NCBI GenBank assembly: GCA_041653755.1
Contig: JBAZEU010000003.1
Location: forward strand, 18,738-82,737
DNA length: 64,000 nucleotides
Direction of reading: 5' to 3'
Origin: Minisyncoccota bacterium
GTDB lineage: Bacteria; Patescibacteriota; Minisyncoccia; UBA6257; UBA9933
The position numbers and the translations under genes are program-made. Below are positions 1,351 through 57,922 of the stretch, one piece after another. The notes under the pieces were generated by a model. The model was not told the DNA's origin and ran no database searches. It saw only the letters and a list, made by a program, of their open reading frames with translations. How positions within the stretch are numbered: the first letter of the stretch is position 1; each line of letters opens with the position of its first letter.

Positions 1351-1364
1351 GATTTTTTCTATAG

Positions 1365-36296: not shown

Positions 36297-36299
36297 AAG

Positions 36300-37418: not shown

Positions 37419-37514
37419 AATCCATGAATCTTAAATCTTAAATCTTGAATCATAAAAATTTATTTTTTGTAACCGTTATTGTTTCGTATTGATACATGTT
37501 CCATGTTTTATGTT

Positions 37515-39032: not shown

Positions 39033-39049
39033 TAGAAGATAAATTTAAC

Positions 39050-39550
39050 TTATTTTACTAAATTCTTTCCTTTTGATAAAAATTTGAAAAGCTCCAAACT
39101 TTCGTTCCTCATAATATTCCCAGTTATTTTTATTGGGCTGCCACCAACGATTTTCATTTTCTTATTTGAAATAGTAAGTTCGTCAAATCCATATCTCTTT
39201 GAATCTTCTATTCTCATACCAAACACAATTTTAGAAATTTTTGCCCAATGGCAAGCGCTAAAACACATAGGGCAGGGTTCGCAGGTGGAATAGATTACAC
39301 AACCCGATAAATCAACAGTTTTAAGTTTCCTGCAAGCCCCTCTAATAGCGCAAATTTCTGCATGAGAGGTTATATCTTTGTTCCTCCGTACTTTATTGTG
39401 GGCACAAATAATTATCTTTCTATTTTTGACTATGCATGCCCCAAAAGGATTTTGACCGTTTTTAATGCCTTGCTTCGCCTTATTAATAGCAATTCCCATA
39501 AATTCACTATCATCCATTTTTTTCTTTTTTACGGCGGTAGTATAAGACAT
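39050..39550 (-). CDS. CMP/dCMP-type zinc deaminase (TadA/nucleoside deaminase-like)
   Basis: HAEICAI and PCPMC zinc-binding motifs. Confidence 0.75.
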   Translation of the reverse strand: MSYTTAVKKKKMDDSEFMGIAINKAKQGIKNGQNPFGACIVKNRKIIICAHNKVRRNKDITSHAEICAIRGACRKLKTVDLSGCVIYSTCEPCPMCFSACHWAKISKIVFGMRIEDSKRYGFDELTISNKKMKIVGGSPIKITGNIMRNESLELFKFLSKGKNLVK

Positions 39551-39556
39551 TAAAAC

Positions 39557-40600
39557 TTATAAATATCTTGCTAAGAAAAATATCGCTAACCCTAATCCGA
39601 CAGAAACCGCGGAAATAATCCAGAAACGCATTGTCACCTGGCTCTCCGGCCAACCTCTCGCTTCGAAATGATGATGAATCGGAGTGGAGAGAAAAGTTTT
39701 TCTCTTAAATAATTTTTTACTTGTTAATTGAATGATAACCGAAGCCGATTCTATTAATAGAATTACGCCGAAGAATGGCAACAGCAAAGTAGTGTTGGTC
39801 AACATCGCCATCACGCCTAAGGTAATTCCTAATGACATCGAACCGGTATCTCCCATAAAAAACCTTGCCGGATAAATATTGAACCACAGAAAAGCTAAAA
39901 GCGCGCCGGATAAAACCGACGAAAAAGCCGCCAAGTGATAACGATTGAGAATGAAAGCGACTACTGTCAAAGCGGCAAAAGCAAACAAAGAAACTCCTCC
40001 GAGTAAACCATCCAAACCGTCTGTTTCATTCGCCGAAAAAGCCGCAGCAATAATTACAAACATAAAAACCGGAACATACCAGCCGCCTATCGGAATATTC
40101 CCGACAAACGGGACGTATAGAACTGTCCATTGAAGCTTAAAATAAAACCACCATGCGCCGACAGCAGCAATCACAGCATAAATAATCAATTTATGAGAAA
40201 TTCGCAAGCCGCCACCATTAGGCCCGATTCTGAACTTACCCAACAAATCATCAACTAATCCGATTAAAGCGGCAAAAAGCAAAGCGGCAATAGGCAGATA
40301 TGTTTGAGCTCTATCAACGAAATTAAAATATTGGAAAAATCCGTCAAAAAAATGGCTCAAGATAAAAAATATCAAGGCCAGTCCCAAAACCGTTCCCCAA
40401 ATTATTATTCCACCCATTGTCGGAGTCCCTTCTTTCTTCTGATGGAACTTCGTGAAAATCGGCGTATCTGAACCGTTTCTGATTTGTTTTCCTATTTGAT
40501 GTTTGTGTAAAAATCTGTCGAGGAACGGCGTAAAAAATAACGCCGTTAAAAAACCTATTCCCCCTAAAATTAAAATTCTTGTTGCCTGTAAAATTACCAT
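39557..40600 (-). CDS. mraY: phospho-N-acetylmuramoyl-pentapeptide transferase
   Basis: 10-TM; conserved Asp motifs (NETDGLDGL, VDDLLGK), HHHFE. Confidence 0.9.
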   Translation of the reverse strand: MVILQATRILILGGIGFLTALFFTPFLDRFLHKHQIGKQIRNGSDTPIFTKFHQKKEGTPTMGGIIIWGTVLGLALIFFILSHFFDGFFQYFNFVDRAQTYLPIAALLFAALIGLVDDLLGKFRIGPNGGGLRISHKLIIYAVIAAVGAWWFYFKLQWTVLYVPFVGNIPIGGWYVPVFMFVIIAAAFSANETDGLDGLLGGVSLFAFAALTVVAFILNRYHLAAFSSVLSGALLAFLWFNIYPARFFMGDTGSMSLGITLGVMAMLTNTTLLLPFFGVILLIESASVIIQLTSKKLFKRKTFLSTPIHHHFEARGWPESQVTMRFWIISAVSVGLGLAIFFLARYL

Positions 40601-40731
40601 GATAATATAAATTCTAATCTCTAATATCTAAATTCTGAACAATATCTAATTATCTAAATTATAAACTTTTTGGATTTTGCTATTTTTGATTTGTTTAGAT
40701 TTTAGGATTTCGGATTTAGGGTTTACTGCTT

Positions 40732-41661
40732 CTAATTATTTAGAAGCAGGCGTGTATCTCCAAACCTATCCTCGCTCCCTAAGACAATTATCAAAATCGG
40801 GCCTCTGCCATTTGAGTCCTGAAATAATGAAATTAAATTACCTTTCGATTCATCAATAAATCCGGTTTTCCCGCCCAAGAAATTAGCTTGTCCGGCAAAT
40901 TCGTTGATGCTATTTAAAATTCTTGATTTTTCGCTTTGTGTTTCTGTAATAGAAATTATTTTCTGAGTGGTAATTTTAAAAATTTCCGGATTATTTAAAT
41001 AAATATAATTCACTAATTTTGCCAAATCATTTGCAGTTGATTGGTTCAGAAAAGAAATGCCGGTTGGATCAACAAATTTTGTTTCGGTCATTTTCAATTC
41101 AACCGCTTTTTGATTCATCGCTGTAATAAAATCCTGTTCGCCGTATGTTTCCGCTAATGCTTCTGCCGCGTCATTGCTTGATAAAGTAAGCATCGCTTTT
41201 AATAAATTACTGGCTTTATATGTATCGCCAACCCTAAAATCACCCGATACTCCTTCCGCTTCTATCGCATGCTCACTTAATTTAATCTCCGTATTTAAAT
41301 CAATTTTTTCTGTCACAATCAACGCTGTCATTAATTTTGTCAAAGAAGCAATTGGCCAACGATTTTCAGTTTTTTGTTCCGCTAAATCAACGCCAGTATT
41401 TAATAATCTTTTCAAAAAGACTTGAGCGTAAATTTTTGGCTGTAAATTTTGAGTAGTCGTTACGTTATCGCCCGCTGATGTTGTTTTTAAAACCGCAGCC
41501 GCTGATGAAGAATTTACTGCTTGAGTTTCCTGGCTTTTCGCTGTTTCAACTAAAAATTGAGGGTTATTTCCCCTTTCTTGGATCAAAAGACGTACATACG
41601 ACGAAGTGAAGAAAACAGAAACTAAAATTATTGCGGCCAGTAAAAGCCCTTGGAATTTCAT
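40732..41661 (-). CDS. D-alanyl-D-alanine carboxypeptidase (S11, PBP5/6-like)
   Basis: signal peptide; SxxK (ASLTKLMT), SxN (LSSNDAAEAL), KTG (GKTGF). Confidence 0.75.
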   Translation of the reverse strand: MKFQGLLLAAIILVSVFFTSSYVRLLIQERGNNPQFLVETAKSQETQAVNSSSAAAVLKTTSAGDNVTTTQNLQPKIYAQVFLKRLLNTGVDLAEQKTENRWPIASLTKLMTALIVTEKIDLNTEIKLSEHAIEAEGVSGDFRVGDTYKASNLLKAMLTLSSNDAAEALAETYGEQDFITAMNQKAVELKMTETKFVDPTGISFLNQSTANDLAKLVNYIYLNNPEIFKITTQKIISITETQSEKSRILNSINEFAGQANFLGGKTGFIDESKGNLISLFQDSNGRGPILIIVLGSEDRFGDTRLLLNN

Positions 41662-41706
41662 AATAACATCTTATCAAAAATAAATTGGCTTTACAATTGC
41701 TTATTT

Positions 41707-43062
41707 TTAGAAAAAGCTGTCCTTTATGTAGTTAAAAATTGTCTCGGTGTCTTTTCTGGCATCGCTAGATCCTAATACTTCAATAGCGATAGGTCTTATT
41801 GCGCCGTCTTTCTGGATTTCAAAAACCGATAACATCGATTCTTCGCCAGAATCAGTTTTCCCCCACTCCCCTCCAACAAATTCTTGCTCATTAATTGCGT
41901 TATAATTTTCTAAATTAGAAAATGACGGCTGACCATAAAAAGAATAGTCTAGTTTTTGTGAAGTTAGTTTAAATATAAAATTTTTATTGTTGTAGATATA
42001 TTTTGCCAAGGTAAATAAATCTTCTGCGTTAGAGATATCGTTGTTCCCACTTCCGGAAGCATCTTCAAGGCTGGAATTTTGCATTCCGATAGCTTTTACC
42101 TTTTCGTTCATTAATCCAACAAACCTTTCTTTTCCTAGCTGCAAAGACAATACTTCCGCTGCTTCATTTGATGACTCCAACAAAAGAGGATACAAAAAAT
42201 CATACAAATTAACCTTTTGACCAACTTGTAAACGCGGTTTAGAAGTTGGCACTATCATTTCTTTTTTCACTGTTATGGTTTTGTCTAGATTAATATAATC
42301 CATGGAAACCATTGCCGTGATGAGTTTTGCCGCAGAAGCCGCTGGCTTTATATCCCTTGAAGCTCCTTCGAAAAAAACAAAATTATCTTTTATATCAACC
42401 GCTAAATAGCTTTGAGCTGTTATGCCGGGGATTTTTTTCTGATATTGAAAACTGTCTTGAGCAGGCTGATTTGTAAAAACTAAAACTGGTTCGCCAACCA
42501 CCGTAATTTCATAAATCGCCTTTGCGTCTTCGTCTGAAAGACGAATACATCCTCCGGAATAAGCGGAAGAAACTTTCTGCCCATTTTTATAATAAGGCCA
42601 GCCGTGAATGAAAAAGTTTCCTTGAAACTCCATGCTCCAACGAAAATAAACTTTTGCAATCGAAGAAAAATGACTTGGCTCTTTTAAATCAATTTCATAC
42701 ATTCCGGCCGGTGTTTGCCACCAAGAACCTTCCATCCCTTTAGCCAAAATAGGAACTTGCTTAACAAGTCGTCCACCGATATAAGCGCTTAGTTGCATCG
42801 TGGATAAGTCCGCTTCCAAAAAAGCTGCTTTCTGTTCGATTAAACTATTAACAACATTTTTAAAATAATCAGGGTTGCTTAATGTCGGCTGCGAACCATA
42901 CTGCAAAGAAGAAACAACTACTTGCCCCTGCGGTAAAGGAAAGCTGTATTTATAAATAGTCTGGTTGAAAAAAATTATCCATACAGCAGCCGCAGCAACC
43001 AAAATAAAAACGATTAGAACAACAACCCAGAGATTTATTTTTTTTAAAAAAATATTTTTCAC
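41707..43062 (-). CDS. fusion protein: L,D-transpeptidase (YkuD) domain + D,D-carboxypeptidase (S11) domain
   Basis: YkuD catalytic HGWPYY...SGGCIRLSDEDAKAIYE; C-terminal ASAAKLITAMV (SxxK), ESSNEAAEVL (SxN); N-terminal TM. Confidence 0.7.
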   Translation of the reverse strand: MKNIFLKKINLWVVVLIVFILVAAAAVWIIFFNQTIYKYSFPLPQGQVVVSSLQYGSQPTLSNPDYFKNVVNSLIEQKAAFLEADLSTMQLSAYIGGRLVKQVPILAKGMEGSWWQTPAGMYEIDLKEPSHFSSIAKVYFRWSMEFQGNFFIHGWPYYKNGQKVSSAYSGGCIRLSDEDAKAIYEITVVGEPVLVFTNQPAQDSFQYQKKIPGITAQSYLAVDIKDNFVFFEGASRDIKPAASAAKLITAMVSMDYINLDKTITVKKEMIVPTSKPRLQVGQKVNLYDFLYPLLLESSNEAAEVLSLQLGKERFVGLMNEKVKAIGMQNSSLEDASGSGNNDISNAEDLFTLAKYIYNNKNFIFKLTSQKLDYSFYGQPSFSNLENYNAINEQEFVGGEWGKTDSGEESMLSVFEIQKDGAIRPIAIEVLGSSDARKDTETIFNYIKDSFF

Positions 43063-43077
43063 TTTAGTCGTAAATTA

Positions 43078-44361
43078 TTAATTTGGCAGTAACGCTCCTT
43101 TCGTATAAACATTCCTCGGATCCCAAAGCATCCAACCGTCTGATAATCCGGCATCATGGACTGCCTGAATCTGTTCTCTGACCATTTCTGCCGTGTAGTC
43201 CGCTCCCAAATCAAAATCCTGAAGCCAAGGACGAAGCTTGGCAATCGGAGCAACGAAACATTTCGGCGAATAAGCTGGCGTTGAAGTTGAGCTCGTCGCA
43301 CTGGTTGTAGATACCGTACCATTCCCTGATAAACAGTTTTTCAATCGTTGGTTCGCTATTTCCATCGAGTATTTTACCACTTCATACGGATAAAGGGCAG
43401 GCTTTTTATATCCTAAAAATCCAGACGCATAATGGCTCGGATAAACCATCGGACAAACATAATCAAAATACTGATAAGCGTTTTCTATGACTTGCCCAAT
43501 TCCCAAATCGTCTGAATTAACAGTTGTTAGCCCAAAAAGATCAGCGGAAATTTTATTACCGGCTGTCTGCTCTCTAAGATATTTCATGAAACTTCTAAGG
43601 ATTCCACTTTTGGTGTTTTTACCGTCATACACGGGATACGACATATCGCTCATTTTTCCATCAGAAGGGAAACGAATATAATCAAAATTTACTTCATCAA
43701 ATCCCCTACCAAACGCATCTTTGGCAATCATAATATTATAATCCCAAACTTCTTTTGAAGCCGGATCCATCCACGCCAAACCTTTATTGTCTTTCCATGT
43801 TGTTCCAGTTGATTTGCTTTGAACCGCTAGATCGGGTCGAGCTTTTGCTAAAACCGGATCTTGGAAAATTGTAATTCTCGCAATTGCATAAATTCCTTCA
43901 TCGTGAAGCTTTTTAATAACAGTATTTATTCTTGGAGTTCTTAATTCTTTCGCTTTGTATTTTTCAATATCGCTATTTTGAATATCATAAGTGATGTATC
44001 CAGAATAATCTTTTATATCGATTACCATCGCATTGATTTCTGTTTCTTTCGCTAGATTGATTAATCGGTTTAATTCTGTTTGGCCACCGGCAACCCAGCT
44101 TGTTACGTAAATTGATTTAATAACGCTTGGCGGATTTGCCAATGGTTTTTGGTTTTCGATATCTCCTGTTCCGTTCGTGGTTTTTATTGGATCAGTCGCT
44201 TCCGCCTCTGTTGTGCTTGGCAAAGTTGAAGTAACAGTTGATGTACTATTTATTGATGCTAAATTTTGGCTAGGCGAAACTTCAAAGTTTGTTGTCTTTG
44301 AAAAAACAAAAAATAGGCCAGCGCCTACGACAACGACTAAAGATAAAATCAGATATTTCAT
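43078..44361 (-). CDS. secreted putative glycoside hydrolase-like TIM-barrel protein (GHL10/DUF4015-like) with Ser/Thr-rich linker
   Basis: N-terminal TM/signal, STVTSTLPSTTEAEAT linker, ...SIYVTSWVAGG...AMVIDIKDYSGYITYD... pattern. Confidence 0.45.
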   Translation of the reverse strand: MKYLILSLVVVVGAGLFFVFSKTTNFEVSPSQNLASINSTSTVTSTLPSTTEAEATDPIKTTNGTGDIENQKPLANPPSVIKSIYVTSWVAGGQTELNRLINLAKETEINAMVIDIKDYSGYITYDIQNSDIEKYKAKELRTPRINTVIKKLHDEGIYAIARITIFQDPVLAKARPDLAVQSKSTGTTWKDNKGLAWMDPASKEVWDYNIMIAKDAFGRGFDEVNFDYIRFPSDGKMSDMSYPVYDGKNTKSGILRSFMKYLREQTAGNKISADLFGLTTVNSDDLGIGQVIENAYQYFDYVCPMVYPSHYASGFLGYKKPALYPYEVVKYSMEIANQRLKNCLSGNGTVSTTSATSSTSTPAYSPKCFVAPIAKLRPWLQDFDLGADYTAEMVREQIQAVHDAGLSDGWMLWDPRNVYTKGALLPN

Positions 44362-46475: not shown

Positions 46476-47579
46476 ATGGCTCTCGCTATTTATAGAAAAT
46501 ATCGACCGAGAACTTTTGAAGATGTTTTAGGGCAAGAGAATATCACAGAGCTTCTAAAAAATGCCGCGGCTTCAAATCGATTGGCGCATGCTTATCTTTT
46601 TTTCGGACCAAGAGGATGCGGAAAAACAACTACTGCTCGTTTGATTGCCAAAATCGCCAATTGCGAAACTCGTCAGCAAGACGAAAATTTTAGAAAAAAA
46701 GGCGAACCTTGTAATCATTGCCGAGTTTGTAAAGAAGTCGATGAAGGGCATGCTCTAGACATTATTGAAATTGATGCCGCTTCAAATCGTGGTATTGATG
46801 AAATCAGAAATTTAAAAGAAGGGATAAACCTCTCCCCTACTTCTTATCAATATAAAGTTTTTATTATTGATGAAGCACATCAATTAACCAAAGAAGCGTT
46901 TAATGCTTTATTAAAAACCTTGGAGGAACCGCCAGCTCACGCAATTTTAATTTTAGCCACAACTCAAATAGAAAAAATCCCGGCAACGATCGCCTCTCGA
47001 ACTCAAAGATTTCAATTTAAAAAAGTTCCGCTTTTAACGATTGTTGAAAAATTAAAGAAAATTGTTGAACAAGAAAAAATTGAAATCACTAAAGATGCTT
47101 TGGAAATGGTGGCGGCTGCGGCTGAAGGAAGTTTCAGAGACTCAGAAAGTTTATTGGAACAACTAGCAAGTTTGTCAGAAAAAATAAACCTGGAAAATGT
47201 TGAACAAACATTGGGCCGGGTTGGATTCTTAAAAACAGCCGGATTAGCAGAATTATTGGTTAAAAAAGATATGAAAGCGGCTTTGGAATATTTATACGAA
47301 ATAAACGAGAGCGGATATAATCTTGTCCAATTTAATAAAGATCTAATTCATTATTTGAGGCGGGTTTTATCCCTGAAATTAAATCCCCAACTCGAAAATA
47401 TGTTTAAAAAGGAAATCACTGACTCCGAGCTTGAAATTATCAAAAAACATAGTAAAATAGCCGAAGATCAACAATTGATAAAATTGATAAAATCTTTGAT
47501 TGAAGCATACACTGAAATGCGCTATTCACCGTTTACGGTAGTACCACTGGAAGTAGCAATCGTAGAAAACTTAAAGTAA
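46476..47579 (+). CDS. dnaX: DNA polymerase III subunit gamma/tau (clamp-loader AAA+ core)
   Basis: YRPRTFEDVLGQE..., Walker A GPRGCGKTT, zinc module CNHCRVC, DEAH-like IIDEAHQL, SRT motif. Confidence 0.85.
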   Translation: MALAIYRKYRPRTFEDVLGQENITELLKNAAASNRLAHAYLFFGPRGCGKTTTARLIAKIANCETRQQDENFRKKGEPCNHCRVCKEVDEGHALDIIEIDAASNRGIDEIRNLKEGINLSPTSYQYKVFIIDEAHQLTKEAFNALLKTLEEPPAHAILILATTQIEKIPATIASRTQRFQFKKVPLLTIVEKLKKIVEQEKIEITKDALEMVAAAAEGSFRDSESLLEQLASLSEKINLENVEQTLGRVGFLKTAGLAELLVKKDMKAALEYLYEINESGYNLVQFNKDLIHYLRRVLSLKLNPQLENMFKKEITDSELEIIKKHSKIAEDQQLIKLIKSLIEAYTEMRYSPFTVVPLEVAIVENLK

Positions 47580-47757: not shown

Positions 47758-49803
47758 TTACTTTTCTTTGCCTAAGAATTTCTTCCAGCCTGGAAAATCT
47801 TTGTACGTTCTATCAGGGGCAGAAGGCAATTTGCAATCTTGCTTGTATCTTTTAACGTATTCTCTGGAGTTTAATGCTTTCAATTTTTTCGCAATCTCGC
47901 TAGCCTCTTGCCACGTCCGATAGAAGTCTGTTCCGAGAAAGATTTTCCAGCCTGGGAAATCTTTGTATTGCCTATTAGGTTGGCGACGAAGCCTACGATC
48001 TCGCTTATACTTTTGAAAATATTCTGATTGAGTTAATATTCCCAATTTTTTCGCAATCTCGCTAGCCTCTTGCCACGTACCATAAAGCCCTCTTTCTCCC
48101 CTTAGAAAAACTGCGAAGCCAGGGAAATCTTTGTACAAGTCTTCCGGATGATGACAAAGCATACGATCTTTCTTGTACTTCTTAAGATATTCTGATTTGC
48201 TTGAGATGCCTAATTTTCTCGTAGTTTCGCCTGCCTCTTGCCATGTTGCATAGAACACTCTTTTTGTTCCCAGAAAAGCTGCAAAGCCAGGGAAATCTTT
48301 ATATGTGTAAGGCCTGCCAGGAAGCTTACTGTCTTGTTTACGCTTTCTCGCATATTCCTCTAAACTAGATATCCCCAATTTTCTCGCAGCCTCGCCTGCT
48401 TCCTGCCATGTTGTATAGACTTCTTTTGTTCCGAGAAAAACTTTCCAGCCAGGAAAATCTTTATATATTTCATTGGGGCAAGCAGGTAATTTATAATCTT
48501 GTTTGTACTTTTTCCCCCATCTGTATTCTGTAACGCTAGATATTCCTAACTTTCTCGTAGCTTCGCCTGCCTCTTGCCAGGTCTTATAGAAAGGCTCATT
48601 AATTCTTTTGATCACATTGAGGATATCAACCTGATCATCGGAAAAAATGAAGTCAAAGGCTTTACCGCTGACGTGAAGAACCTCTTTGTCTAAAACAAAG
48701 TGGTTGCCAGCGAACTCTTTGACTCTCCCGGCCATTTCCTTGACCATAGCTAATCTTTCACAATTAGCCACAAAATCAAGAACAACGACTTTGGATTTAC
48801 CAAGAACCTTTCTTAATCCTCGGCCAAGTTGCTGGTAAAAGATAGTTCTGGAGTCAGTGCAACGTAGGAACACAATTACTTCGACATCAGGTATATCAAT
48901 GCCCTCGTTGAATTTATTCACAGCTAAAATATATTGCTGTGAATCTTCACGGAAGACACTGAGTCTTCTTCTGCTCTCTTTCTCCTGTATGCCTGAATGA
49001 TAAGTTAAGGCGTTAGGAAAAAAAGATTTGAAGGTTTCCACGTGTTCTATCCCTTCACAGAAGATAACTGCCTTTTTGTCTGTTCCTGCGTATTGCTGAA
49101 TCTGGCGGGCAATCTCATCGTCTCTTCGCTTAATAAAGATTGTTTCGTTAAGCTGTTTGATGTAGATACGTCTGCCCTTTCTCAAAATTCCCTTAAGAAT
49201 CTTCTTAAGTTTCCAGTGGCTTAACCGATCGTTGAGTATGTGATACTCAACCTGGGTCAGCCAACCCTTGGCAATTGCTTCTTCTAAAGAATAATTAACT
49301 ATCTCTTTGCCAAAAAATTCTCGGATATCTTTTAAATCCATTCTGTCAGGAGTAGCGGTGATTCCGAGAAGTTTTTTCGGCTTGAAATAGCAAATTACAT
49401 CTTTAAAAGTAGAAGCCTGACCGTGATGAGATTCATCAACAATGATAAAGCCGAACTCATCTTCAAAGAAAACATGTTTCCAGTTCCTATAGGTCTGAAA
49501 AGAAGCAAAGACAACGTTGGCTTGATCGGCATTAAAATCTTTACTTGAACCATAGAAAGGTTTAAGTATAACTTGTTCGCCCAAAACTTTTCTGAACTCA
49601 AGCATTGCCTGATCGAGAATCCCGTTGTTGTGACAAAGGAATAATCCTTTGTGACCATTATTTATTTCTTTCTGGGCCCAGAAAGCAGAAACGATAGTCT
49701 TGCCTAGTCCGGTAGCCATAACTACCAATGCGGTTGCTTTTTCTTTGAAAGCATTAACGATCAAATCAAGAGCCTTTTGCTGATAATCAAACAAATTCAT
49801 CAT
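47758..49803 (-). CDS. SF2 helicase (ResIII/XPB-like DEAH) with five C-terminal ~55-aa tandem repeats
   Basis: motif I ATGLGKT, II DESHH, III TATPDR, VI QQLGRGLR; C-terminal repeats TWQEAGEAxRKLGISSxxEYxxKYKxDxKLPxxPxxxYKDFPGWxxFLG x5 (47758-~48590). Confidence 0.75.
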   Translation of the reverse strand: MMNLFDYQQKALDLIVNAFKEKATALVVMATGLGKTIVSAFWAQKEINNGHKGLFLCHNNGILDQAMLEFRKVLGEQVILKPFYGSSKDFNADQANVVFASFQTYRNWKHVFFEDEFGFIIVDESHHGQASTFKDVICYFKPKKLLGITATPDRMDLKDIREFFGKEIVNYSLEEAIAKGWLTQVEYHILNDRLSHWKLKKILKGILRKGRRIYIKQLNETIFIKRRDDEIARQIQQYAGTDKKAVIFCEGIEHVETFKSFFPNALTYHSGIQEKESRRRLSVFREDSQQYILAVNKFNEGIDIPDVEVIVFLRCTDSRTIFYQQLGRGLRKVLGKSKVVVLDFVANCERLAMVKEMAGRVKEFAGNHFVLDKEVLHVSGKAFDFIFSDDQVDILNVIKRINEPFYKTWQEAGEATRKLGISSVTEYRWGKKYKQDYKLPACPNEIYKDFPGWKVFLGTKEVYTTWQEAGEAARKLGISSLEEYARKRKQDSKLPGRPYTYKDFPGFAAFLGTKRVFYATWQEAGETTRKLGISSKSEYLKKYKKDRMLCHHPEDLYKDFPGFAVFLRGERGLYGTWQEASEIAKKLGILTQSEYFQKYKRDRRLRRQPNRQYKDFPGWKIFLGTDFYRTWQEASEIAKKLKALNSREYVKRYKQDCKLPSAPDRTYKDFPGWKKFLGKEK

Positions 49804-50068: not shown

Positions 50069-50629
50069 TCAAATCAAAGAAATAAGTTCCTTTTTCGGAT
50101 CGATCCTGATAACTTTATCGAAGCCGTCAGAATTAATCTGTGATGCATTCTCATGAAAGAATTCGTAATCATGAGATGGGGCATCCTTGGAAAAAAATAC
50201 AAACCCTTTTCCTTGCCGTGCTTTCATTTCTTCAGCCTTTGCGATTCCTGGCTTTTCCCAAAACCATATATTTACAGTCTTGAGCGAAGTCACGAAATAA
50301 AGGGCTACAATACGAGTAGCTCCGTACTGTCTCAATTTTTTTACAAGAGACCTTCGCTCCTCACTATAGCCAGTCCAGGTATCAAGAATTAATTTTAGCC
50401 CCGTTTGAGTTGATAATTTACGCCTCAGAAGGCGATACATAATCTCTTGGGCAAAATACTGTCCTCCAGTATACGGGCTCATATGAACCGAACCGAAAAG
50501 GCGTACAAGAATCTCATCGCGACTCACTGCAGATATTTCCGGTTGTCTTTCGATAACCTGCTTAGCATAATGACTTTTGCCTGATCCTCGTTGACCAACC
50601 AACAGATAAACAGTATTATTTCTCCCCAT
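50069..50629 (-). CDS. P-loop NTPase / small kinase (AAA_33 / zeta-toxin / polynucleotide-kinase-like)
   Basis: Walker A LVGQRGSGKS at N-terminus; 186 aa; Walker B-like hydrophobic stretch LILDTW. Confidence 0.5.
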   Translation of the reverse strand: MGRNNTVYLLVGQRGSGKSHYAKQVIERQPEISAVSRDEILVRLFGSVHMSPYTGGQYFAQEIMYRLLRRKLSTQTGLKLILDTWTGYSEERRSLVKKLRQYGATRIVALYFVTSLKTVNIWFWEKPGIAKAEEMKARQGKGFVFFSKDAPSHDYEFFHENASQINSDGFDKVIRIDPKKELISLI

Positions 50630-50778: not shown

Positions 50779-51666
50779 TTATTCCTGATCGTAATATTTG
50801 AGAAGCGCTTTGATACCTGCTAAATTTTTATCCCACTCGATAGCTTCATGAGTTTTAAGTTCTACTGTAATCGCTGGAATGTTAATTGAAGCTAACCACC
50901 CTTCAGCGTCTCCAGTAACATCATACTGATCAAATGTTTTAACTGCCGTGTATCCTGACGCTTGAGCATAAGCATTCATAATATCAAGTGTCTTGGTGAG
51001 AATCCCGTCTTCACATTTTGATGCATAGACAGCATTTGCTTGGCTGTGCCAAAAAATAACGGCACTTGGAGTATTTTTCAAAATAAAATCTCGAATGGCT
51101 ACTGTTTCTGGCTCAGAAAATACTTTTGATCCAGCACTTACTATAGTATCCCGCCAGGTACTTTTTGATTTCCAATTACAATCAAAATTACGATTAAGAT
51201 CAACGTTATCTGCATTGAGACGCCCTGTTCCATCAGTTTGATTTTTTGTCTGTACATCTGAAATTGTAAAACGACCCCCCTTTCCGATTACCTTGTAAAC
51301 TCCATCTGGATTAGCGGACGGAATCACCGTAATAATTAAATTTTCCGGAATGACGTCCGGAGTTTTTTCCAAATAATCCATAACTTGATACGCCAAAAGA
51401 ACACTATTCCACTCATAGCCGCCATGGATACCGCCAATAAAAATCAAACGGGTATCCCCTTTTCCATATGTATAAGCATCAATATCACGACCTTCTACGG
51501 ATTTACCGATAATCGTATGTTGAGATTGAAAATTATTTGATTCCGGAAGCGCCACCGGTGTTAACTCATGCGCTTTTTTATAACCCACAAACACAAATAC
51601 ACCAGTAACAATTACGGCAAAAATAAGAAGAATTATTACATTACGCCTCGTAAAGAGAACCCTCAT
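50779..51666 (-). CDS. M14-family zinc carboxypeptidase (gamma-D-Glu-DAP peptidase/MpaA-like), membrane anchored
   Basis: IGGIHGGYEWN (HxxE zinc ligands), NPDG, DLNRNF substrate-binding motif; N-terminal TM. Confidence 0.7.
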   Translation of the reverse strand: MRVLFTRRNVIILLIFAVIVTGVFVFVGYKKAHELTPVALPESNNFQSQHTIIGKSVEGRDIDAYTYGKGDTRLIFIGGIHGGYEWNSVLLAYQVMDYLEKTPDVIPENLIITVIPSANPDGVYKVIGKGGRFTISDVQTKNQTDGTGRLNADNVDLNRNFDCNWKSKSTWRDTIVSAGSKVFSEPETVAIRDFILKNTPSAVIFWHSQANAVYASKCEDGILTKTLDIMNAYAQASGYTAVKTFDQYDVTGDAEGWLASINIPAITVELKTHEAIEWDKNLAGIKALLKYYDQE

Positions 51667-52565
51667 TATTTAGCGTAGTGCTTTAGTAACGCATTAATAC
51701 CTAATAAATTTTTGCTCCATTCAGTATCTTCGTGATTAGAAAGAAGCACGCTAATTGCGGGAATGCTTTTCTTAGCAAGCCAATTTACCATATCGCCCGT
51801 TGTCTCATAAAAGTCAAAGCTGTCATATGCTTTATAACCAGAAGCAATTGCATATGTATTAGTAAGCGTACGGGTTTCAGCTAAAATCCCGTTATGACAG
51901 TTTGAAGCGAACACACCGCCAGCAGCACTATACCATACAACAACCGCGGCAGGTTTGTTAATTTCTATATAACTTTTAATTGCCTGACTTTCTTTTTCAG
52001 AAAATACCTTACTTCCGCCACTCACTGTTGTATTTTGCCAGACACCTTTAGATTGCCAATCACAGTCAAAGTTACGATTGAGGTCTACGTCGTTAGCGTT
52101 AAAACGACCTGCTGTTAAAATACTTTTTGAAGTTGATACATCCGCTTGCACAAAACGTCCAGTAGCACCAATAACTTTATAAAGACCATCAGGATTCAAT
52201 ACTGGAATAACAGTGACTTTTACATTCTTGGGAATAACGTTGGGATTTGCTTCCAAATAATCCATAAGATTATAAGCAACAAGCACTGTGTTCCATTCAT
52301 AACCGCCATGAATACCGCCAACAAACAAAAGTTCTGTATTGCCAGTACCATAATTATATGCAGTAATGTCACGATTTTCAGTAGATGTCCCAATAACTGT
52401 TTTATTCGTATCTGCTAAATTCTGATTTTGCGTCTCAACAGTACTGGTTGTCGTACCCTGGTTCTCTGTCACGGGTACGGTATTAAGCGAACGATGGGTG
52501 AAAAAATACACGCCAGCGATAATAATAGCTATAATAATAATTGCGCTAATAATGATTTTCTTCAT
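51666..52565 (-). CDS. M14-family zinc carboxypeptidase, tandem paralog
   Basis: VGGIHGGYEWN, NPDG, DLNRNF; ~45% identical to downstream paralog. Confidence 0.7.
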   Translation of the reverse strand: MKKIIISAIIIIAIIIAGVYFFTHRSLNTVPVTENQGTTTSTVETQNQNLADTNKTVIGTSTENRDITAYNYGTGNTELLFVGGIHGGYEWNTVLVAYNLMDYLEANPNVIPKNVKVTVIPVLNPDGLYKVIGATGRFVQADVSTSKSILTAGRFNANDVDLNRNFDCDWQSKGVWQNTTVSGGSKVFSEKESQAIKSYIEINKPAAVVVWYSAAGGVFASNCHNGILAETRTLTNTYAIASGYKAYDSFDFYETTGDMVNWLAKKSIPAISVLLSNHEDTEWSKNLLGINALLKHYAK

Positions 52566-52667
52566 AGTAATATTATTTTAGCATAAATATATTTATACAA
52601 CTACCCCCTGACCGAGACAAGTTAATTTGATATAATACAACCAACTGAAAATTTAGTGTTATAAAAT

Positions 52668-53570
52668 ATGAATAAAAAAATTTTGTTGATAATTTTGATA
52701 GTTTTATTGATAATCATTTCTGGTTTCGGAGCATGGTATTTCATAAATAAAGAAAAGATAGTTCAACCCCTCAAACCAATAGCGCAAGCTAATTATCTTT
52801 GTAACGGGGGTAAAACAATAGATGCGACTTTTTACAAAGAGGAACAAAAACCGGTACAACCGGGACAACCACCAATTCCTTCTGGAAGCGTAATAGTCGT
52901 TTTGAGTGATGGACGAACTTATAATTTACTTCAGACCATTTCCGCAGACGGATCACGATACGCTAACAGTAATGAGTCATTTGTTTTTTGGAGCAAAGGG
53001 AACGGCGCACTTGTTTTAGAGAATAATGTTGAAAAAAGTTATACAGGATGTATGGTGTTATCCCCTGACCCGGGAGGATTACCGCAAACTTATTCTAACG
53101 GAACTGTCGGTTTTTCTATTCGTTATCCGGCAAATTATTCAATAAATGCTTCTTATGTATATCAAGAATTAGGCCCGGGTAAAAATATTAGCGGAATAAA
53201 GTTCACTATTCCTTCCAGTACTGCTTTAGGGACTAATTTATCAAGTTTTGATACCGGCGTTTCAATAGAATTTATCCCTGCGACTCAAGATTGCAATGCA
53301 AACCTTTTTTTGTTTGGTAATAATAACGCTCAGAACATAACTGACAACGGCAGAGATTATTCTTTTGCTTCAACCACCGGAGCCGGTGCCGGAAACCGTT
53401 ACGAAGAAGACGTTTGGGCAATTCCATACACCAACCCATGTATTGCTGTCCGTTATCTTGTTCATTCGACCGTTCTTGAAAATTATCCGACCGGAACTGT
53501 AAAAATTTTTGACAGGCAAGCATTACTTTCTCAATTCGATGATATTCGCCAAACGCTTGTAACACAATAA
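52668..53570 (+). CDS. membrane-anchored protein with MliC/PliC-like lysozyme-inhibitor domain plus unknown C-terminal domain
   Basis: YLCNGGKTIDATFYK...VVLSDGRTYNLLQTISADGSRYANSNESFVFWSKGNGALVLENN closely follows MliC family pattern (C..G....Y...VTL.DG....L.QA.SASGARY....EFWSKG.EALL). Confidence 0.6.
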   Translation: MNKKILLIILIVLLIIISGFGAWYFINKEKIVQPLKPIAQANYLCNGGKTIDATFYKEEQKPVQPGQPPIPSGSVIVVLSDGRTYNLLQTISADGSRYANSNESFVFWSKGNGALVLENNVEKSYTGCMVLSPDPGGLPQTYSNGTVGFSIRYPANYSINASYVYQELGPGKNISGIKFTIPSSTALGTNLSSFDTGVSIEFIPATQDCNANLFLFGNNNAQNITDNGRDYSFASTTGAGAGNRYEEDVWAIPYTNPCIAVRYLVHSTVLENYPTGTVKIFDRQALLSQFDDIRQTLVTQ

Positions 53571-54085
53571 TGTCAAAACAAATTAATACAATTTCTGTTT
53601 CCCCTGAAAGGAAATTAATTTGGAACAACAAAGAATACAAATGTTCCTTGGGAGAAAACGGTGTTTCAGAAAACAAAAAAGAAGGAGATAAGACTACTCC
53701 TGTTGGTTGTTTTTCTTTAAGAGAAGTATATTTTAGATCTGACCGTATCGAAAAACCAATGACAGAACTTCCGACAAAAGCTTTAACTCCGAACGATGGT
53801 TGGTGCGACAATCCAAATGATCAAAACTATAATAGGTTTATTAAGCTCCCCTATTCTGCCAATGCAGAATCATTATGGCGTGAAGATAACCTATACGATG
53901 TTATCGTTGTGATTGGCTATAATGATGACCCAATTTTTCCAAACAAAGGCAGCGCTATCTTCATACATATAGCTCGAGAAGAGTACAAACCTACTGCTGG
54001 TTGTATTGGCCTTGCTTTGCCAGATTTATTAGAAATCCTCGCTACGATCGAAAAAAACACAATAATTTGTATTAACAAATCATAA
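53570..54085 (+). CDS. L,D-transpeptidase-fold protein (YkuD/Tlde1-like catalytic motif), cytoplasmic
   Basis: GSAIFIHIAREEYKPTAGCIGLALPDL resembles His...Gly-Cys-Ile catalytic dyad region of L,D-transpeptidases; no signal peptide. Confidence 0.45.
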   Translation: MSKQINTISVSPERKLIWNNKEYKCSLGENGVSENKKEGDKTTPVGCFSLREVYFRSDRIEKPMTELPTKALTPNDGWCDNPNDQNYNRFIKLPYSANAESLWREDNLYDVIVVIGYNDDPIFPNKGSAIFIHIAREEYKPTAGCIGLALPDLLEILATIEKNTIICINKS

Positions 54086-54102
54086 TTGCTAGCATCAGCT
54101 AT

Positions 54103-54360
54103 ATGGAAAACTTCGAAAAACAACCAGAAAAAATAGAAGACATTGAAGCAGAGATTAAAAAACTTCATGAAAAAGCAGAAGGTCTTCTCTTAGAAATTCC
54201 TGAAGAAAAGATGTCCGATAAGGTATACGACGCATGGTGGGCAGCTGATTCAGCCGTAGACGCTGGAATAAATCCAGAAGAAATAAAAGGACTGTTATTA
54301 AATGCGATAAAACTTTTTGAAAGGGAAATCGAAGCAGAAAAAGCTGAAACTAAAGAATAA
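54103..54360 (+). CDS. hypothetical small acidic protein (85 aa)
   Basis: highly acidic helical ORF; followed by terminator. Confidence 0.4.
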   Translation: MENFEKQPEKIEDIEAEIKKLHEKAEGLLLEIPEEKMSDKVYDAWWAADSAVDAGINPEEIKGLLLNAIKLFEREIEAEKAETKE

Positions 54361-54373
54361 ATATATCAAAACA

Positions 54374-54410
54374 AAAACCACTCCGATAAATACCGAAGTG
54401 GTTTTTATAT
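54374..54410. terminator. bidirectional intrinsic terminator
   Basis: aaaaccact-ccgataaataccga-agtggttttt. Confidence 0.6.
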
Positions 54411-54424
54411 TCGATATATCTCTG

Positions 54425-55336
54425 CTATATCTTCAAATATTTTCTGACCGCAATGACACTAGAGGTAACTCCCACTACTATGCCGAACAAAATTTGTTGG
54501 AGTAAGATGAGGAAAAAATGAGAATCAAAATATTGTTTTAAATTCATTTCAGGGACAAAAACTTTCACATACGGACTGCCAAAATAAACTATCGGGAAAA
54601 GTATAATCATTGATAAAATCGCCGAAATCAAACCATAAGTGATGCCTTCCACAATATAAGGACCTGATGTAAAAAAATTAGAAGCGCCTACCAACCGCAT
54701 AATTCCTATCTCATCTCTGGAAGAATGGATAGCCAAGCCGATAGCCGCAAGAGTTACAAGTACCGCTATTAATGTCAGGAAAATCGTCACCAGTAGACCG
54801 AACAATCTTGTCGTATCGATAATCTTTATTAACCGGTCTATCATCTGCGAATTTCGTTCGTCGTAAGAAACTTTTTCAACGCTGTTTTTAAATTCGTCTC
54901 CTCCTAAAAACGAAGCTATCATCTGATACTGTTTTGGGTCTTGCGCCTTGATACTTATTGAGGCCAAAAGCGGATTTTCTCCTGCCTGATCAATAGCCTG
55001 CGTAATTGTTTCATCTCCTTGATGCTGTTCTTTAAAAATTTCCAGCGCTTTATCACGCGAAATATATTCAGTGTTTTTTACTTCAGGCATCGCTTTAAGT
55101 GTGCTTTGAATTTTCAAGATTTCATCTTCCGGCGTAGTACTTTTAAAAAATACGCTGATGTCAATTTTATCCTGAATCGAAGTAAGGGTGGTTCTTGATA
55201 TAACGTTAAAAAGATTAATGCCACCAAAAACAATCAAAGCCAAAAACATAATGGCGATAGTAGCGGTTGAAAGAGAAGCGTTCCTCCAAAATCTCTGTAA
55301 ACCAAATTTTATAATTCTTGAAAGATTAGTAAGCAT
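54425..55336 (-). CDS. ftsX: cell division ABC transporter permease FtsX
   Basis: 4-TM FtsX topology with periplasmic loop; downstream of ftsE. Confidence 0.85.
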   Translation of the reverse strand: MLTNLSRIIKFGLQRFWRNASLSTATIAIMFLALIVFGGINLFNVISRTTLTSIQDKIDISVFFKSTTPEDEILKIQSTLKAMPEVKNTEYISRDKALEIFKEQHQGDETITQAIDQAGENPLLASISIKAQDPKQYQMIASFLGGDEFKNSVEKVSYDERNSQMIDRLIKIIDTTRLFGLLVTIFLTLIAVLVTLAAIGLAIHSSRDEIGIMRLVGASNFFTSGPYIVEGITYGLISAILSMIILFPIVYFGSPYVKVFVPEMNLKQYFDSHFFLILLQQILFGIVVGVTSSVIAVRKYLKI

Positions 55337-55367
55337 ACTTCTTATATCATAAATCTTAAATCATAAA

Positions 55368-56066
55368 TCATATTAATATGTATTTTCCTTTTTCTTCGTC
55401 CCGAACAATTTTTCCGCTTTCCAATAGAATAACTCTCCTTTCTAAATTATTAATAATATCTTTATTGTGAGTGGCAAGAATTACCGTAGTCCCCATTTCA
55501 TTAATAGTTAAAAGCAGTTTGATAATATCGGCGGAATTAATCGGATCCAAATTGCCAGTCGGCTCATCGGCCACTAAAACATCAGGATTGTGAATTAAAG
55601 CTCTAGCAATTGCCACTCTTTGTTGTTCCCCTCCGGAAAGCTCTTTCGGAAAATTGCTTACTTTTTCTTTCAACCCTACCAGTTCCAAAATTTTCGGGAC
55701 AAAATCCTTGATTTCTTTGTCTGGCCGGCCAGCCACCTCCAAAGCAAACGCAACATTTTCATAAGCAGTTTTATTGGTCAACAATTTGAAATCCTGGAAA
55801 ACTACTCCGATATGCCGACGCAAACTCGGCAGCTCTTTAGGCTGTAATTTATTCACATCATAAGAGCCAAAAATTATACGGCCCTTATCCGGTCCTTCTT
55901 CGCCGACTAATAATTTAATAAGCGTTGATTTTCCTGCCCCTGATTTGCCCACCAAAGAAACAAATTCTTTAGGATTTACCTTAAAAGATACATCATCTAA
56001 GGCAATTGTTTCTGTCCCCTTGCCATTACCGTTATAAAACTTTGTGACGTTTTGAAAAGCAATCAT
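55368..56066 (-). CDS. ftsE: cell division ATP-binding protein FtsE
   Basis: Walker A GKSGAGKSTL, signature LSGGEQQRVAIARAL, Walker B VLVADEPTGNLD; start chosen at MIAFQNV abutting prfB stop. Confidence 0.85.
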   Translation of the reverse strand: MIAFQNVTKFYNGNGKGTETIALDDVSFKVNPKEFVSLVGKSGAGKSTLIKLLVGEEGPDKGRIIFGSYDVNKLQPKELPSLRRHIGVVFQDFKLLTNKTAYENVAFALEVAGRPDKEIKDFVPKILELVGLKEKVSNFPKELSGGEQQRVAIARALIHNPDVLVADEPTGNLDPINSADIIKLLLTINEMGTTVILATHNKDIINNLERRVILLESGKIVRDEEKGKYILI

Positions 56067-56067
56067 A

Positions 56068-57103
56068 TTACTGTCTAAGTATATCACTTTCAATGAAGAT
56101 TTCAATCTCGCCTTCTAAAACTTTTTCCGCTTGGGTTGTTTCCACGCCAGTTCTTGTGTCTTTTACCAATTTATACGGGTTTAAAACATAAGAACGAATC
56201 TGATTCCCCCACTCTGGTTTAACTTTTGTCCGCAGTTTCGATAATTCCTGCTCTTGCTGGCCTTCCATTAATTTAATCAACTTAGCTTTCAGAATTTTTA
56301 AAGCTCTCTCTCTATTTTGCGCCTGTGATCTTTCAACTTGGCATGCGACAGAAATATTTGTCGGAAGATGAATAACCCTTACGCTGGTCTCAACTTTATT
56401 TACGTTTTGGCCGCCAGGACCGGAAGACCTGAAAAATTCAAATTTTAAATCCTCTTCCGGAATTTTGAATTCTTTTTCATCAATTTCCGGCAGTTCCGGC
56501 AAAACTTCTACTAACGCAAAAGAAGTGTGCCGTTTTTGCTCTGGTGAAAAAGGAGAAATCCTGACCAAGCGATGAACTCCGGCTTCTTTTTTTAAATAGC
56601 CATAAGCATAATCGCCTTCTATCTCTACGGTAACATCGCCCGAACCCTCATCAATTGTTTTTACTTTCCAGCCCTGTTTCTGACTGTATTTAGAATACAT
56701 TTCACAAAGCATCCTAGCCCAATCCTCCGCATCTTTACCGCCAGCGCCGGCAAAGACAGATAAAATCGCCGACTGCTTGTCGTATTTTCCAGTAAAAAGA
56801 GTTTTGAGTTCTAATTTAGTGATTACCCGTTTTACCTCGTAAAATTTATCTTCATTGAAATCAACTTCCAACTCAACCAAAGATTTCTGGATTTTTTCAA
56901 ACTGCTCAACCAATTCTTTTATTTCTCCGAATTCTTTCAATTTTTCTTCGGCTCTCTGGCGTTCCTTCCAAATATCCGGATCGCTTATCTCGAATTCAAG
57001 TTCTTTTAAACGGATTTTTTTAGCGGCGATGTCAAAGCCGCCCGCCTAAGCGGCGGGTTTGCTCTTGCAGTTCTTGAAATTGTTGTAATAAAGTCTCGTT
57101 CAT
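56068..57103 (-). CDS. prfB: peptide chain release factor 2 with programmed +1 ribosomal frameshift
   Basis: ORF0 MNETLLQQFQELQEQTRRLGGRL ends at CTT TGA C (plus-strand 57031-57037) preceded by SD-like GGCGGGCGG; +1 frame continues LDIAAKKIRLKE...; SPF and GGQ motifs. Confidence 0.9.
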
Positions 57104-57800: not shown

Positions 57801-57828
57801 CTCCTTTTTAAGGAGAAGAGGCCGGGGC

Positions 57829-57922
57829 AGGATTCGAACCTGCATGGACTTATCGTCCTGCGAGTTTGCAGCCCGCTTTGCCTGTGCCTTATTACTCTTC
57901 GGCTACCCGACCGTTAATTATT
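57829..57922 (-). tRNA. atypical 94-nt tRNA-like gene, candidate anticodon GCA, long variable arm and ~10 extra nt in D region
   Basis: acceptor GGTCGGG/CCCGGCC, T-arm GCAGG-TTCGAAT-CCTGC, variable arm GGAC-GATAA-GTCC, anticodon stem GCGGG/CTCGC loop CTGCAAA (U33, A37), D-arm GCC-12nt-GGC; 5' half too long for canonical cloverleaf. Confidence 0.45.

Follow-up and report, generated by a model that had tools for sequence, protein, structure and literature searches.

A cell-envelope gene group in a Candidatus Paceibacterota genome: one system or juxtaposed conserved modules?

Background

Do adjacent genes with related domains form one functional system, or do they only lie side by side? The question is raised by a group of five genes from an ultra-small bacterium, a Candidatus Paceibacterota metagenome-assembled genome (MAG), located at positions 50779 to 54360 of a 64-kb stretch of DNA, hereafter the window. 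They encode two M14 peptidases (M14-A and M14-B), an MliC-like protein (MliC-PsbP), a YkuD protein of 171 aa (YkuD-171) and a small acidic protein; the open reading frame (ORF) of the latter is called here the acidic ORF. All coordinates are positions in the window, and residue numbers are those of full-length proteins. A preliminary description had presented the genes as one peptidoglycan-targeting set, possibly in contact with a host or partner cell, and had likened the last two to an effector and immunity pair. Our reading, to which we assign a probability of about 0.55, is that independently conserved cell-envelope modules happen to lie side by side in this genome, and do not form one system. 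A candidate toxin-immunity or host-attack system does not hold up. The most solid new point, as far as sequence can tell, is a conserved M14 bicistron, predicted to pair a dead with an active copy.

All five ORFs of the preliminary description were confirmed at their coordinates. Matches of 100% to MAG proteins at NCBI place the genome in Candidatus Paceibacterota. On the minus strand lie M14-B (51666-52565, 299 aa, with a transmembrane (TM) segment at residues 4-22), the upstream gene of the pair, and M14-A (50779-51666, 295 aa, TM segment at residues 10-28), the downstream one; the stop of M14-B and the start of M14-A share 1 nt. On the plus strand follow the MliC-PsbP gene (52668-53570, 300 aa, two domains, TM helix at residues 5-23), the YkuD-171 gene (53570-54085, a single-domain, signal-less protein with H133 and C145) and the acidic ORF (54103-54360, 85 aa, helical, pI 4.49), which is convergent with the ftsX-ftsE-prfB genes. 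Hydropathy analysis places N-terminal TM anchors in both M14 proteins and in the MliC protein, none in the YkuD and acidic proteins.

Profile searches assigned the claimed families as expected, with Pfam matches above the gathering cut-offs for Peptidase_M14 (E-values 7e-22 for M14-A and 1.8e-16 for M14-B), MliC (3.3e-10, residues 43-119) and YkuD (1.7e-13), while no Pfam family matched the acidic ORF. At the level of domains, then, the peptidoglycan theme is borne out: M14 peptidases, an MliC-like domain and a YkuD fold with conserved Cys and His are all present.

Synteny of the five genes

The loci of relatives were screened by tblastn, 90 for YkuD and 83 for MliC, and ten neighborhoods were looked up individually. 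In the former screen a YkuD-171 relative is encoded in 86 loci, which extend up to 8 kb to either side of it; in the latter all 83 encode an MliC-PsbP relative, 52 of them with at least 1.5 kb downstream. None of the 86 YkuD-171 loci has a relative of either M14 protein, the acidic ORF or FtsX, and just one has a weak MliC-like match. Similarly, neither the YkuD gene nor the acidic ORF was found in any of the 52 MliC-PsbP loci with sufficient downstream sequence. The neighborhoods of three YkuD and four MliC homologs, all on long contigs, are all unlike each other.

Since co-occurrence is absent from both the YkuD and the MliC homolog loci, the five genes do not appear to make up one system. 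On the individual look-ups and both screens a conserved five-gene cluster was rejected: the genes are so arranged in this genome alone. The M14 pair is the one part conserved as a unit.

Among the 83 MliC-PsbP loci, M14 genes lie close to the MliC-PsbP gene in two, L091 and L099, and ftsE-ftsX directly upstream of it in three. Proximity of MliC to the M14 pair or to ftsEX is thus at most a weak, lineage-restricted tendency. Three related metagenome loci (L094, L095 and L116) have the order prfB - ftsE - ftsX - MliC-PsbP; in one of them, L095, a gene of the Glu/Asp racemase family lies upstream of prfB. The window also has prfB, ftsE and ftsX (54425-56940) as neighbors of MliC, but with the MliC unit inverted and the YkuD and acidic genes in between.

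The M14 peptidase pair

The two M14 proteins share 58% identity over 245 aa. They had been described as adjacent, paralogous, membrane-anchored peptidases: adjacency, paralogy and anchors are confirmed, but only one copy is complete. An active M14 peptidase was recognized by its HxxE zinc ligands, a distal His, the Asn144-Arg145 carboxylate clamp and the catalytic Glu270. M14-A, which scores 78.8 bits against a Pfam cut-off of 21.6, carries the complete set when aligned to carboxypeptidases B and T: H81 and E85 (HGGYE), N158 and R159 (NRNF), H207 and E269. It is predicted from these residues to be a catalytically intact zinc peptidase. In M14-B, the third zinc ligand, equivalent to His196, is replaced by Tyr (VWYSA) and the catalytic Glu, equivalent to Glu270, by Leu (SVLLS), while the substrate-binding NRNF motif is retained; M14-B is accordingly predicted to have an M14 fold, but to be inactive.

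This arrangement recurs. In five out of five independent loci (the window, L091, L173, L174/175 and L176/177) the order is B then A, the upstream copy being degenerate and the downstream copy intact in each. The four other B-type copies show the same Tyr/Leu-type loss, and often the zinc Glu is lost too. The two genes overlap or are a few bases apart in all five loci, while their flanking genes vary. Across the family, the H-E-H-E set is complete in 105 of 147 representatives, and the degenerate pattern is seen in about 25. We know of no described bacterial precedent for a conserved M14 pair of pseudo-enzyme and enzyme.

As to substrate, the preliminary description had assigned both proteins to the gamma-D-Glu-DAP (diaminopimelic acid) peptidase type on the basis of HxxE and NRNF motifs. 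NRNF is indeed present, but it is a general M14 motif and not diagnostic of that type, and the zinc motif does not read HxxE: it is HGGYE, or HxxxE, in both window copies and in about 100 of the 147 representatives. The label is plausible but unproven. Other observations tie the family to peptidoglycan peptides, namely the fusions found among its long homologs (LysM domains in 24 out of 56, M23 in 2 and SLT in 2) and the recurrent matches to MpaA, the only catalytic NCBIfam model to recur (48 of the 56 members, best E-value 1.7e-34). On the window proteins themselves this model (NF007897) scores 46.5 and 30.2 bits, against a cut-off of 157, and covers the C-terminal half only; judged by these scores they are relatives of MpaA, not orthologs.

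The MliC-PsbP protein

The N-terminal domain of the third protein had been said to follow closely the MliC/PliC lysozyme-inhibitor signature, and its C-terminal domain to be an unknown one of about 150 aa. The first assignment stands, with one substitution discussed below; the second can now be replaced, the C-terminal domain (about 165 aa, residues ~135-300, nt 53070-53567, plus strand) having a PsbP/Mog1/Tsi3-like alpha-beta fold and a C209-C258 pair. The MliC/PliC beta-barrel spans residues ~43-131 (nt 52794-53060, plus strand) and has a C45-C128 pair. This two-domain architecture is kept in 974 Paceibacterota homologs, with 55-76% identity and the two Cys pairs invariant. We found no description in the literature of a fusion of an MliC barrel to a PsbP fold, and no report tying MliC to Patescibacteria.

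Hallmarks of MliC/PliC are a disulfide between beta1 and beta8 and the motifs SxSGAxY and YxxxTKG (PMC5507604). The window protein has the eight-stranded antiparallel barrel and the beta1-beta8 disulfide. Its beta6 motif, F105-V-F-W-S-K-G111, is a conservative variant of YxxxTKG, and FxxxxKG is found in 110 of 120 homologs. Loop 4, S92-A-D94-G-S-R-Y98, retains the first Ser of the motif, its Gly and its Tyr, but the Ser before the Gly is Asp (SADGSRY), as it is in 94 of the 120 homologs, 23 having Ser. In characterized inhibitors this Ser inserts into the lysozyme active site and hydrogen-bonds the catalytic residues (PMC5507604, PMC8334348), and its absence was offered as the reason why PhiA failed to inhibit in vitro (PMC8334348). 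Because the lysozyme-contacting Ser is Asp here, inhibition of c-type lysozyme by the window protein is uncertain. Endogenous targets, such as lytic transglycosylases, were already a matter of speculation in the founding MliC paper (PMC2267010).

The YkuD-171 protein

YkuD-171 was described as a signal-less protein of 171 aa with a His...Gly-Cys motif. Both features are found: no hydrophobic segment is present, and H133, G144 and C145 are invariant in 28 out of 28 aligned homologs. The spacing of 12 residues from His to Cys (H-x11-C) is kept in 119 of 120. The Pfam score is 51.8 bits, against a cut-off of 23.4. An AlphaFold2 model was obtained with a pLDDT of 94, and all its top Foldseek matches, led by the LD-carboxypeptidases Bd1075 and Csd6, have the YkuD fold, although they are distant (TM-scores of 0.4-0.5); Tlde1a ranks 24th, with 0.49. 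A search of the PDB by sequence gave no match, even at E <= 10.

The family is large and uniform: it counts more than 6,000 homologs, whose length hardly varies (about 166 aa), with 50-70% identity and no signal peptides. An N-terminal extension of YkuD-171 is impossible, the ORF being already maximal, and hydrophobic N-termini are missing from the whole family. At least 596 genomic loci encode relatives, and the best 80 of them are mostly from free-living Alphaproteobacteria (Hyphomonas, Magnetospirillum, Defluviicoccus, Shinella and others, cultured organisms included), at 45-57% identity, a figure unusually high for phyla as distant as these and Patescibacteria. Members of the family occur also in Marinimicrobia and Nitrospinota MAGs (among L011-L090). 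In Alphaproteobacteria the gene has as recurrent neighbors those for a response regulator, a RibA-like protein, a YggS-like pyridoxal phosphate (PLP) protein, a ThiE-like protein and LeuS, the first three in fixed synteny with it; this neighborhood gives no functional clue.

A model for the function is offered by ElsL of A. baumannii, a 164-aa cytoplasmic YkuD L,D-carboxypeptidase with catalytic C138, which converts tetrapeptide, though not pentapeptide, muropeptides to tripeptides in recycling; its orthologs were defined by a single YkuD domain, a length of 105-200 aa, no signal peptide, TM or peptidoglycan-binding domain, and a BLASTp E-value below 1e-4 (PMC8649774). YkuD-171 has the same architecture, being 171 aa long with a YkuD domain only and no hydrophobic segment, and ElsL is the only NCBIfam model to recur in its family (12 of 28 members, best E-value 2.7e-4). 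We infer that YkuD-171 may be an ElsL-like cytoplasmic L,D-carboxypeptidase, by analogy and not by family membership.

Proposed roles and alternative explanations

If the modules are independent, each would have its own task. M14-B and M14-A would both be membrane-anchored, their domains exposed on the outer side. There M14-A, a relative of MpaA and carboxypeptidase T, might cleave off the C-terminal diamino acid, acting on tripeptide stems that are not cross-linked or on free murein tripeptides, and M14-B could be a non-catalytic partner, binding the substrate or regulating M14-A, by analogy with the degenerate LytM proteins Csd2 and EnvC. MliC-PsbP would be a membrane-tethered, disulfide-stabilized binder, restraining a peptidoglycan-cleaving enzyme at the surface, not necessarily an animal c-type lysozyme; its barrel appears to retain the protruding-loop architecture that plugs glycosidase active sites. 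YkuD-171 would act in the cytoplasm as a Cys/His peptidase, trimming L,D-bonded peptidoglycan tetrapeptides to tripeptides, the role that ElsL has in Acinetobacter. The acidic ORF would encode an unrelated, lineage-specific small protein. The data show the family and fold assignments, the conserved residues, the topology and the synteny counts; the substrates, the M14 heterodimer, the target of MliC and the division of roles between compartments are what we infer.

Several observations weigh against independent modules or against the roles just proposed. The MliC, YkuD and acidic genes look co-transcribed in this genome: the MliC stop and the YkuD ATG overlap by 1 nt (TAATG), the acidic ORF starts 17 nt downstream of the YkuD gene, and a single terminator follows. 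The latter is a 17-bp hairpin and T-run at 54371-54408, between the convergent acidic ORF and ftsX, which from its sequence is likely to terminate both the MliC-YkuD-acidic unit and ftsEX. In addition, M14 adjoins MliC in 2-3 related genomes (of about 46 loci), despite inversion. Some functional coupling is therefore possible. For the M14 proteins, the HGGYE motif is an unusual one-residue insertion compared with the HxxE usual in carboxypeptidases A, B and T, and the closest solved structures by profile are carboxypeptidases B, T and A4 (E-values of about 1e-20, full length), the MpaA match being confined to the C-terminal half, so that scavenging of proteins or peptides is possible; the proposed substrate is suggested by homolog fusions and weak similarity to MpaA. 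The binding target of MliC is uncertain, the loop Ser being Asp. As for YkuD-171, the ElsL model NF040925 scores 13.1 bits (E-value 0.061), against a cut-off of 270 bits, and no peptidoglycan-recycling genes are found beside the gene in Alphaproteobacteria. Moreover, A. tumefaciens is reported to have no cytoplasmic LD-carboxypeptidase activity (PMC9790009), a point whose weight depends on the presence of a family member there.

The divergent intergenic region (52566-52667, 102 bp) that separates the M14 pair from the MliC gene contains, 5' of the latter, a promoter-like candidate, CTGACC-17-TATAAT with an extended -10 TG (52608-52636, plus strand), which is a consensus match only.

Among the alternatives, one would join the genes into an operon for peptide trimming and recycling, in which YkuD-171 takes tetrapeptides to tripeptides and M14-A tripeptides to dipeptides, like Csd6/Pgp2 and Csd4/Pgp1 of Helicobacter and Campylobacter, with MliC modulating glycan cleavage. 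The solved structures that best match YkuD-171 are indeed Csd6 and Bd1075, the M14 family is linked to peptidoglycan, the genes are adjacent, three of them apparently on one transcript, and the surroundings are rich in cell-wall genes. However, the compartments differ, since the M14 proteins are extracytoplasmic and YkuD-171 has no export signal; co-localization is absent from the 86 YkuD and 52 MliC loci; and Csd4 and Pgp1, which gave no match to the M14 proteins in the profile search against the PDB, are absent among their profile matches. On balance we regard such an operon as unlikely.

A host-directed toolkit, to which we give similarly little credence, would have the surface M14 pair harvest or trim stem peptides of the host or partner wall, for instance for diamino acids, and MliC shield the episymbiont against wall-degrading enzymes at the site of contact. 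Paceibacterota have reduced biosynthesis, both the M14 pair and MliC are surface-tethered, LysM fusions are frequent in the M14 family, MliC-PsbP is kept across Paceibacterota (the 974 homologs above), and its C-terminal domain resembles the immunity proteins Tsi3 and TplEi of type VI secretion systems (T6SS). Against this, the sequence gives no distinction between self and host peptidoglycan, and the PsbP/Mog1 fold is a generic binding module, common in housekeeping envelope proteins. Adhesion or secretion genes are absent nearby: a scan of the locus, its neighbors and most ORFs of at least 120 aa in the 64-kb window, covering about 48 larger ORFs, gave no secretion-system Pfam matches other than SecA and an ATP-binding cassette (ABC) exporter of the MacB/HlyD type. 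Nor did the literature yield experimental reports of Paceibacterota host interaction at this locus.

It is also conceivable, though improbable, that the M14 proteins are general nutritional carboxypeptidases, acting on environmental peptides and unrelated to peptidoglycan. The broad specificity of the closest profile structures, the carboxypeptidases T, B and A4 mentioned above, would suit such a role, as would an S1' loop (TGD[AM]xxW in the family) resembling the DGDMSDW of carboxypeptidase T. Patescibacteria are, in addition, generally held to have limited amino-acid biosynthesis. Yet homologs are fused to LysM, M23 and SLT domains, MpaA is the only recurrent named bacterial model, the catalytic domain is compact and of MpaA size (about 245 aa), and a conserved dead partner is atypical of digestive carboxypeptidases.

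A bolder proposal concerns the loop Asp. In L091 a gene at 1322-2302 (plus strand) encodes a signal peptide, a DUF5667 domain, a Cys-rich linker and an MliC barrel whose loop also has the Asp (TLSADGGRY). Directly downstream of this gene comes the M14 B-A pair, and then the MliC-PsbP gene and an ECF-type (extracytoplasmic function) sigma factor. Because MliC proteins thus flank the pair on both sides in L091, the window has an MliC gene right beside the pair, and the Asp is found in about 80% of the family, the Asp-loop MliC might not inhibit lysozyme but have been repurposed as a regulator or inhibitor of this M14 zinc peptidase, its loop Asp at the metal site, the M14 pair being an obligate surface heterodimer that processes stem peptides. 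We hold this to be very unlikely; if true, the MliC/PliC fold would gain a new class of target, and the M14 peptidases of ultra-small bacteria would follow a new regulatory logic.

The acidic ORF and the effector-immunity reading

The acidic ORF is an orphan, with only 4 relatives among 5.8 billion proteins. Its closest relatives, in loci L170-L172, lie in a block of about 81% nucleotide identity that covers ftsE, ftsX and the acidic ORF, and ends exactly at the acidic start codon. Upstream of the acidic ORF these loci have a gene for a 79-aa paralog, and not a YkuD gene; the acidic ORF is convergent with ftsX there as well. It thus belongs to an ftsX-side synteny block, not to YkuD. The paralog, 32% identical, overlaps the acidic ORF by one base, so that small acidic helical proteins form a tandem pair beside ftsX there (852-1348 in L170 and 366-862 in L172).

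These data bear on the resemblance to Tlde1/Tldi1 pairs suggested in the preliminary description, according to which YkuD-171 would be a secreted peptidoglycan-targeting toxin and the acidic protein its immunity protein. Tlde1 (Tae5) effectors belong to DUF2778; their genes form bicistrons with those of immunity proteins, which are exported, and the bacteria that have them are T6SS-positive (bioRxiv 10.1101/2020.02.18.954545). YkuD-171 is small, signal-less and of YkuD fold, with a small ORF 17 nt downstream; Tlde1a is among its structural matches, and its His-Cys spacing of 12 is shorter than that of classical YkuD proteins and nearer to the 10 of Tlde1. However, YkuD-171 has no match to DUF2778 (PF10908), the only family found at E <= 1 being PF03734. 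Its own family is huge, highly conserved and set in housekeeping synteny in free-living Alphaproteobacteria, and is unlike a polymorphic toxin because its distribution is wide, not patchy. The search for paired small acidic partners that had been recommended for homologous loci returned none in 86, and the nearest acidic relatives have no YkuD neighbor, so that no conserved bicistron is found. The acidic protein has neither signal peptide nor TM segment (maximum 19-residue hydropathy 0.57), whereas Tldi proteins are exported by a Sec signal or TM segment, and the scan of about 48 larger ORFs of the 64-kb window gave no T6SS or other secretion system beyond SecA and the ABC exporter. The effector-immunity reading, the least probable of all those considered, can be set aside.

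The wider window

Within 20 kb of the locus are found MurG, FtsW, MraY, an S11 DD-carboxypeptidase, a YkuD-S11 fusion and FtsEX, with a DUF4015 protein in the same stretch. Most of these belong to a partial division and cell-wall cluster (35133-44361, minus strand), comprising MurG, FtsW/RodA, an amidohydrolase, a cytidine deaminase, MraY, two S11 proteins and the DUF4015 putative glycosyl hydrolase. The YkuD-S11 fusion (41707-43062, minus strand, 451 aa, with YkuD at residues 82-195 and Peptidase_S11 at 210-371) adjoins the stand-alone S11 DD-carboxypeptidase (40732-41661). The fusion suggests coupled 3-3 cross-linking, because a DD-carboxypeptidase makes the tetrapeptide donor for L,D-transpeptidases. 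For the rest, the window reads as ordinary core chromosome, with tRNA synthetases, MreB and a PBP2-type transpeptidase (1365-5365), SecA and RNase P RNA, besides MurG, FtsW and MraY.

Between dnaX (46476-47579) and the MliC gene sit a 681-aa ResIII/Helicase_C helicase (47758-49803, minus strand) with five C-terminal copies of the 'integrase repeat unit' (INT_rpt), then an AAA_33 kinase-like gene (50069-50629) and the M14 pair. In L007 dnaX is immediately upstream of MliC, and in L009 a few genes upstream; as the two are close there and separated in the window, an insertion or rearrangement at this point is suggested.

A tRNA-Cys(GCA) lies at 57818-57904 (minus strand; 87 nt by ARAGORN, anticodon at position 36). 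It scores 36 bits in Rfam, against 55-71 for the other four tRNAs, and its structure may be unusual or hold an insertion.

Significance

As a by-product, the analysis brings out three large, clearly defined and uncharacterized families relevant to the cell-wall biology of Patescibacteria. One is the M14 family with its conserved pair. The MliC-PsbP fusion, with its systematically altered lysozyme-contacting residue, raises the question of what MliC-fold proteins bind where animal lysozyme is never met. The YkuD-171 family, signal-less and common to Patescibacteria and Alphaproteobacteria at about 50% identity, may represent one more class of cytoplasmic L,D-carboxypeptidase, for lineages that have no known enzyme of this type.

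Comparison with known systems

The likeness to Tlde1/Tldi1 is that a member of the L,D-transpeptidase superfamily, small and signal-less, has its His/Cys dyad at short spacing and is followed by a small ORF; the window differs in having YkuD in place of DUF2778, no T6SS among the ORFs scanned, no conserved bicistron, no exported immunity protein and a housekeeping distribution. ElsL is closer in architecture, both proteins being single signal-less YkuD domains of similar length (164 and 171 aa) with the Cys near the C-terminus (C138 and C145). ElsL orthologs have been reported mainly in Gamma- and Betaproteobacteria and Verrucomicrobia (PMC8649774), in contrast to the YkuD-171 family, found in Patescibacteria, Alphaproteobacteria and others; the sequence similarity between the two is marginal.

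Compared with the MliC/PliC inhibitors (E. coli YdhA, P. aeruginosa MliC and Salmonella PliC), the window protein is TM-anchored and not a lipoprotein or periplasmic, its barrel is fused to the 165-aa PsbP-like domain, and Asp replaces the lysozyme-contacting Ser; it comes, moreover, from an environmental organism, for which animal c-type lysozyme is no obvious target. The C-terminal domain is only 8-17% identical to envelope proteins of the PsbP/Mog1/DcrB/LpqN fold and to Tsi3 and TplEi, with no shared functional residues known.

With MpaA of E. coli and Vibrio, M14-A shares the M14 fold, the zinc ligands, the Asn-Arg clamp, the catalytic Glu and a compact domain of about 245 aa. The window pair differs from both MpaA and the LysM-bearing M14 peptidases in being TM-tethered, neither soluble nor LysM-bearing, in its HxxxE motif and in the tandem of dead and active copies. 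The gamma-D-Glu-meso-DAP endopeptidase I type (MEROPS M14C), specific for gamma-D-Glu-(L)-mDAP, has N-terminal LysM repeats; LysM is found in 24 of the 56 long homologs, and a TM anchor takes its place in the window proteins. Pairs of degenerate and active peptidoglycan hydrolases are otherwise represented by H. pylori Csd1-Csd2 and the LytM activators of the EnvC/NlpD type. Those are M23/LytM proteins, while the window pair is M14. Like them, it sets a predicted intact enzyme beside a paralog without metal ligands and catalytic residues, in an M14 arrangement that is kept across genomes.

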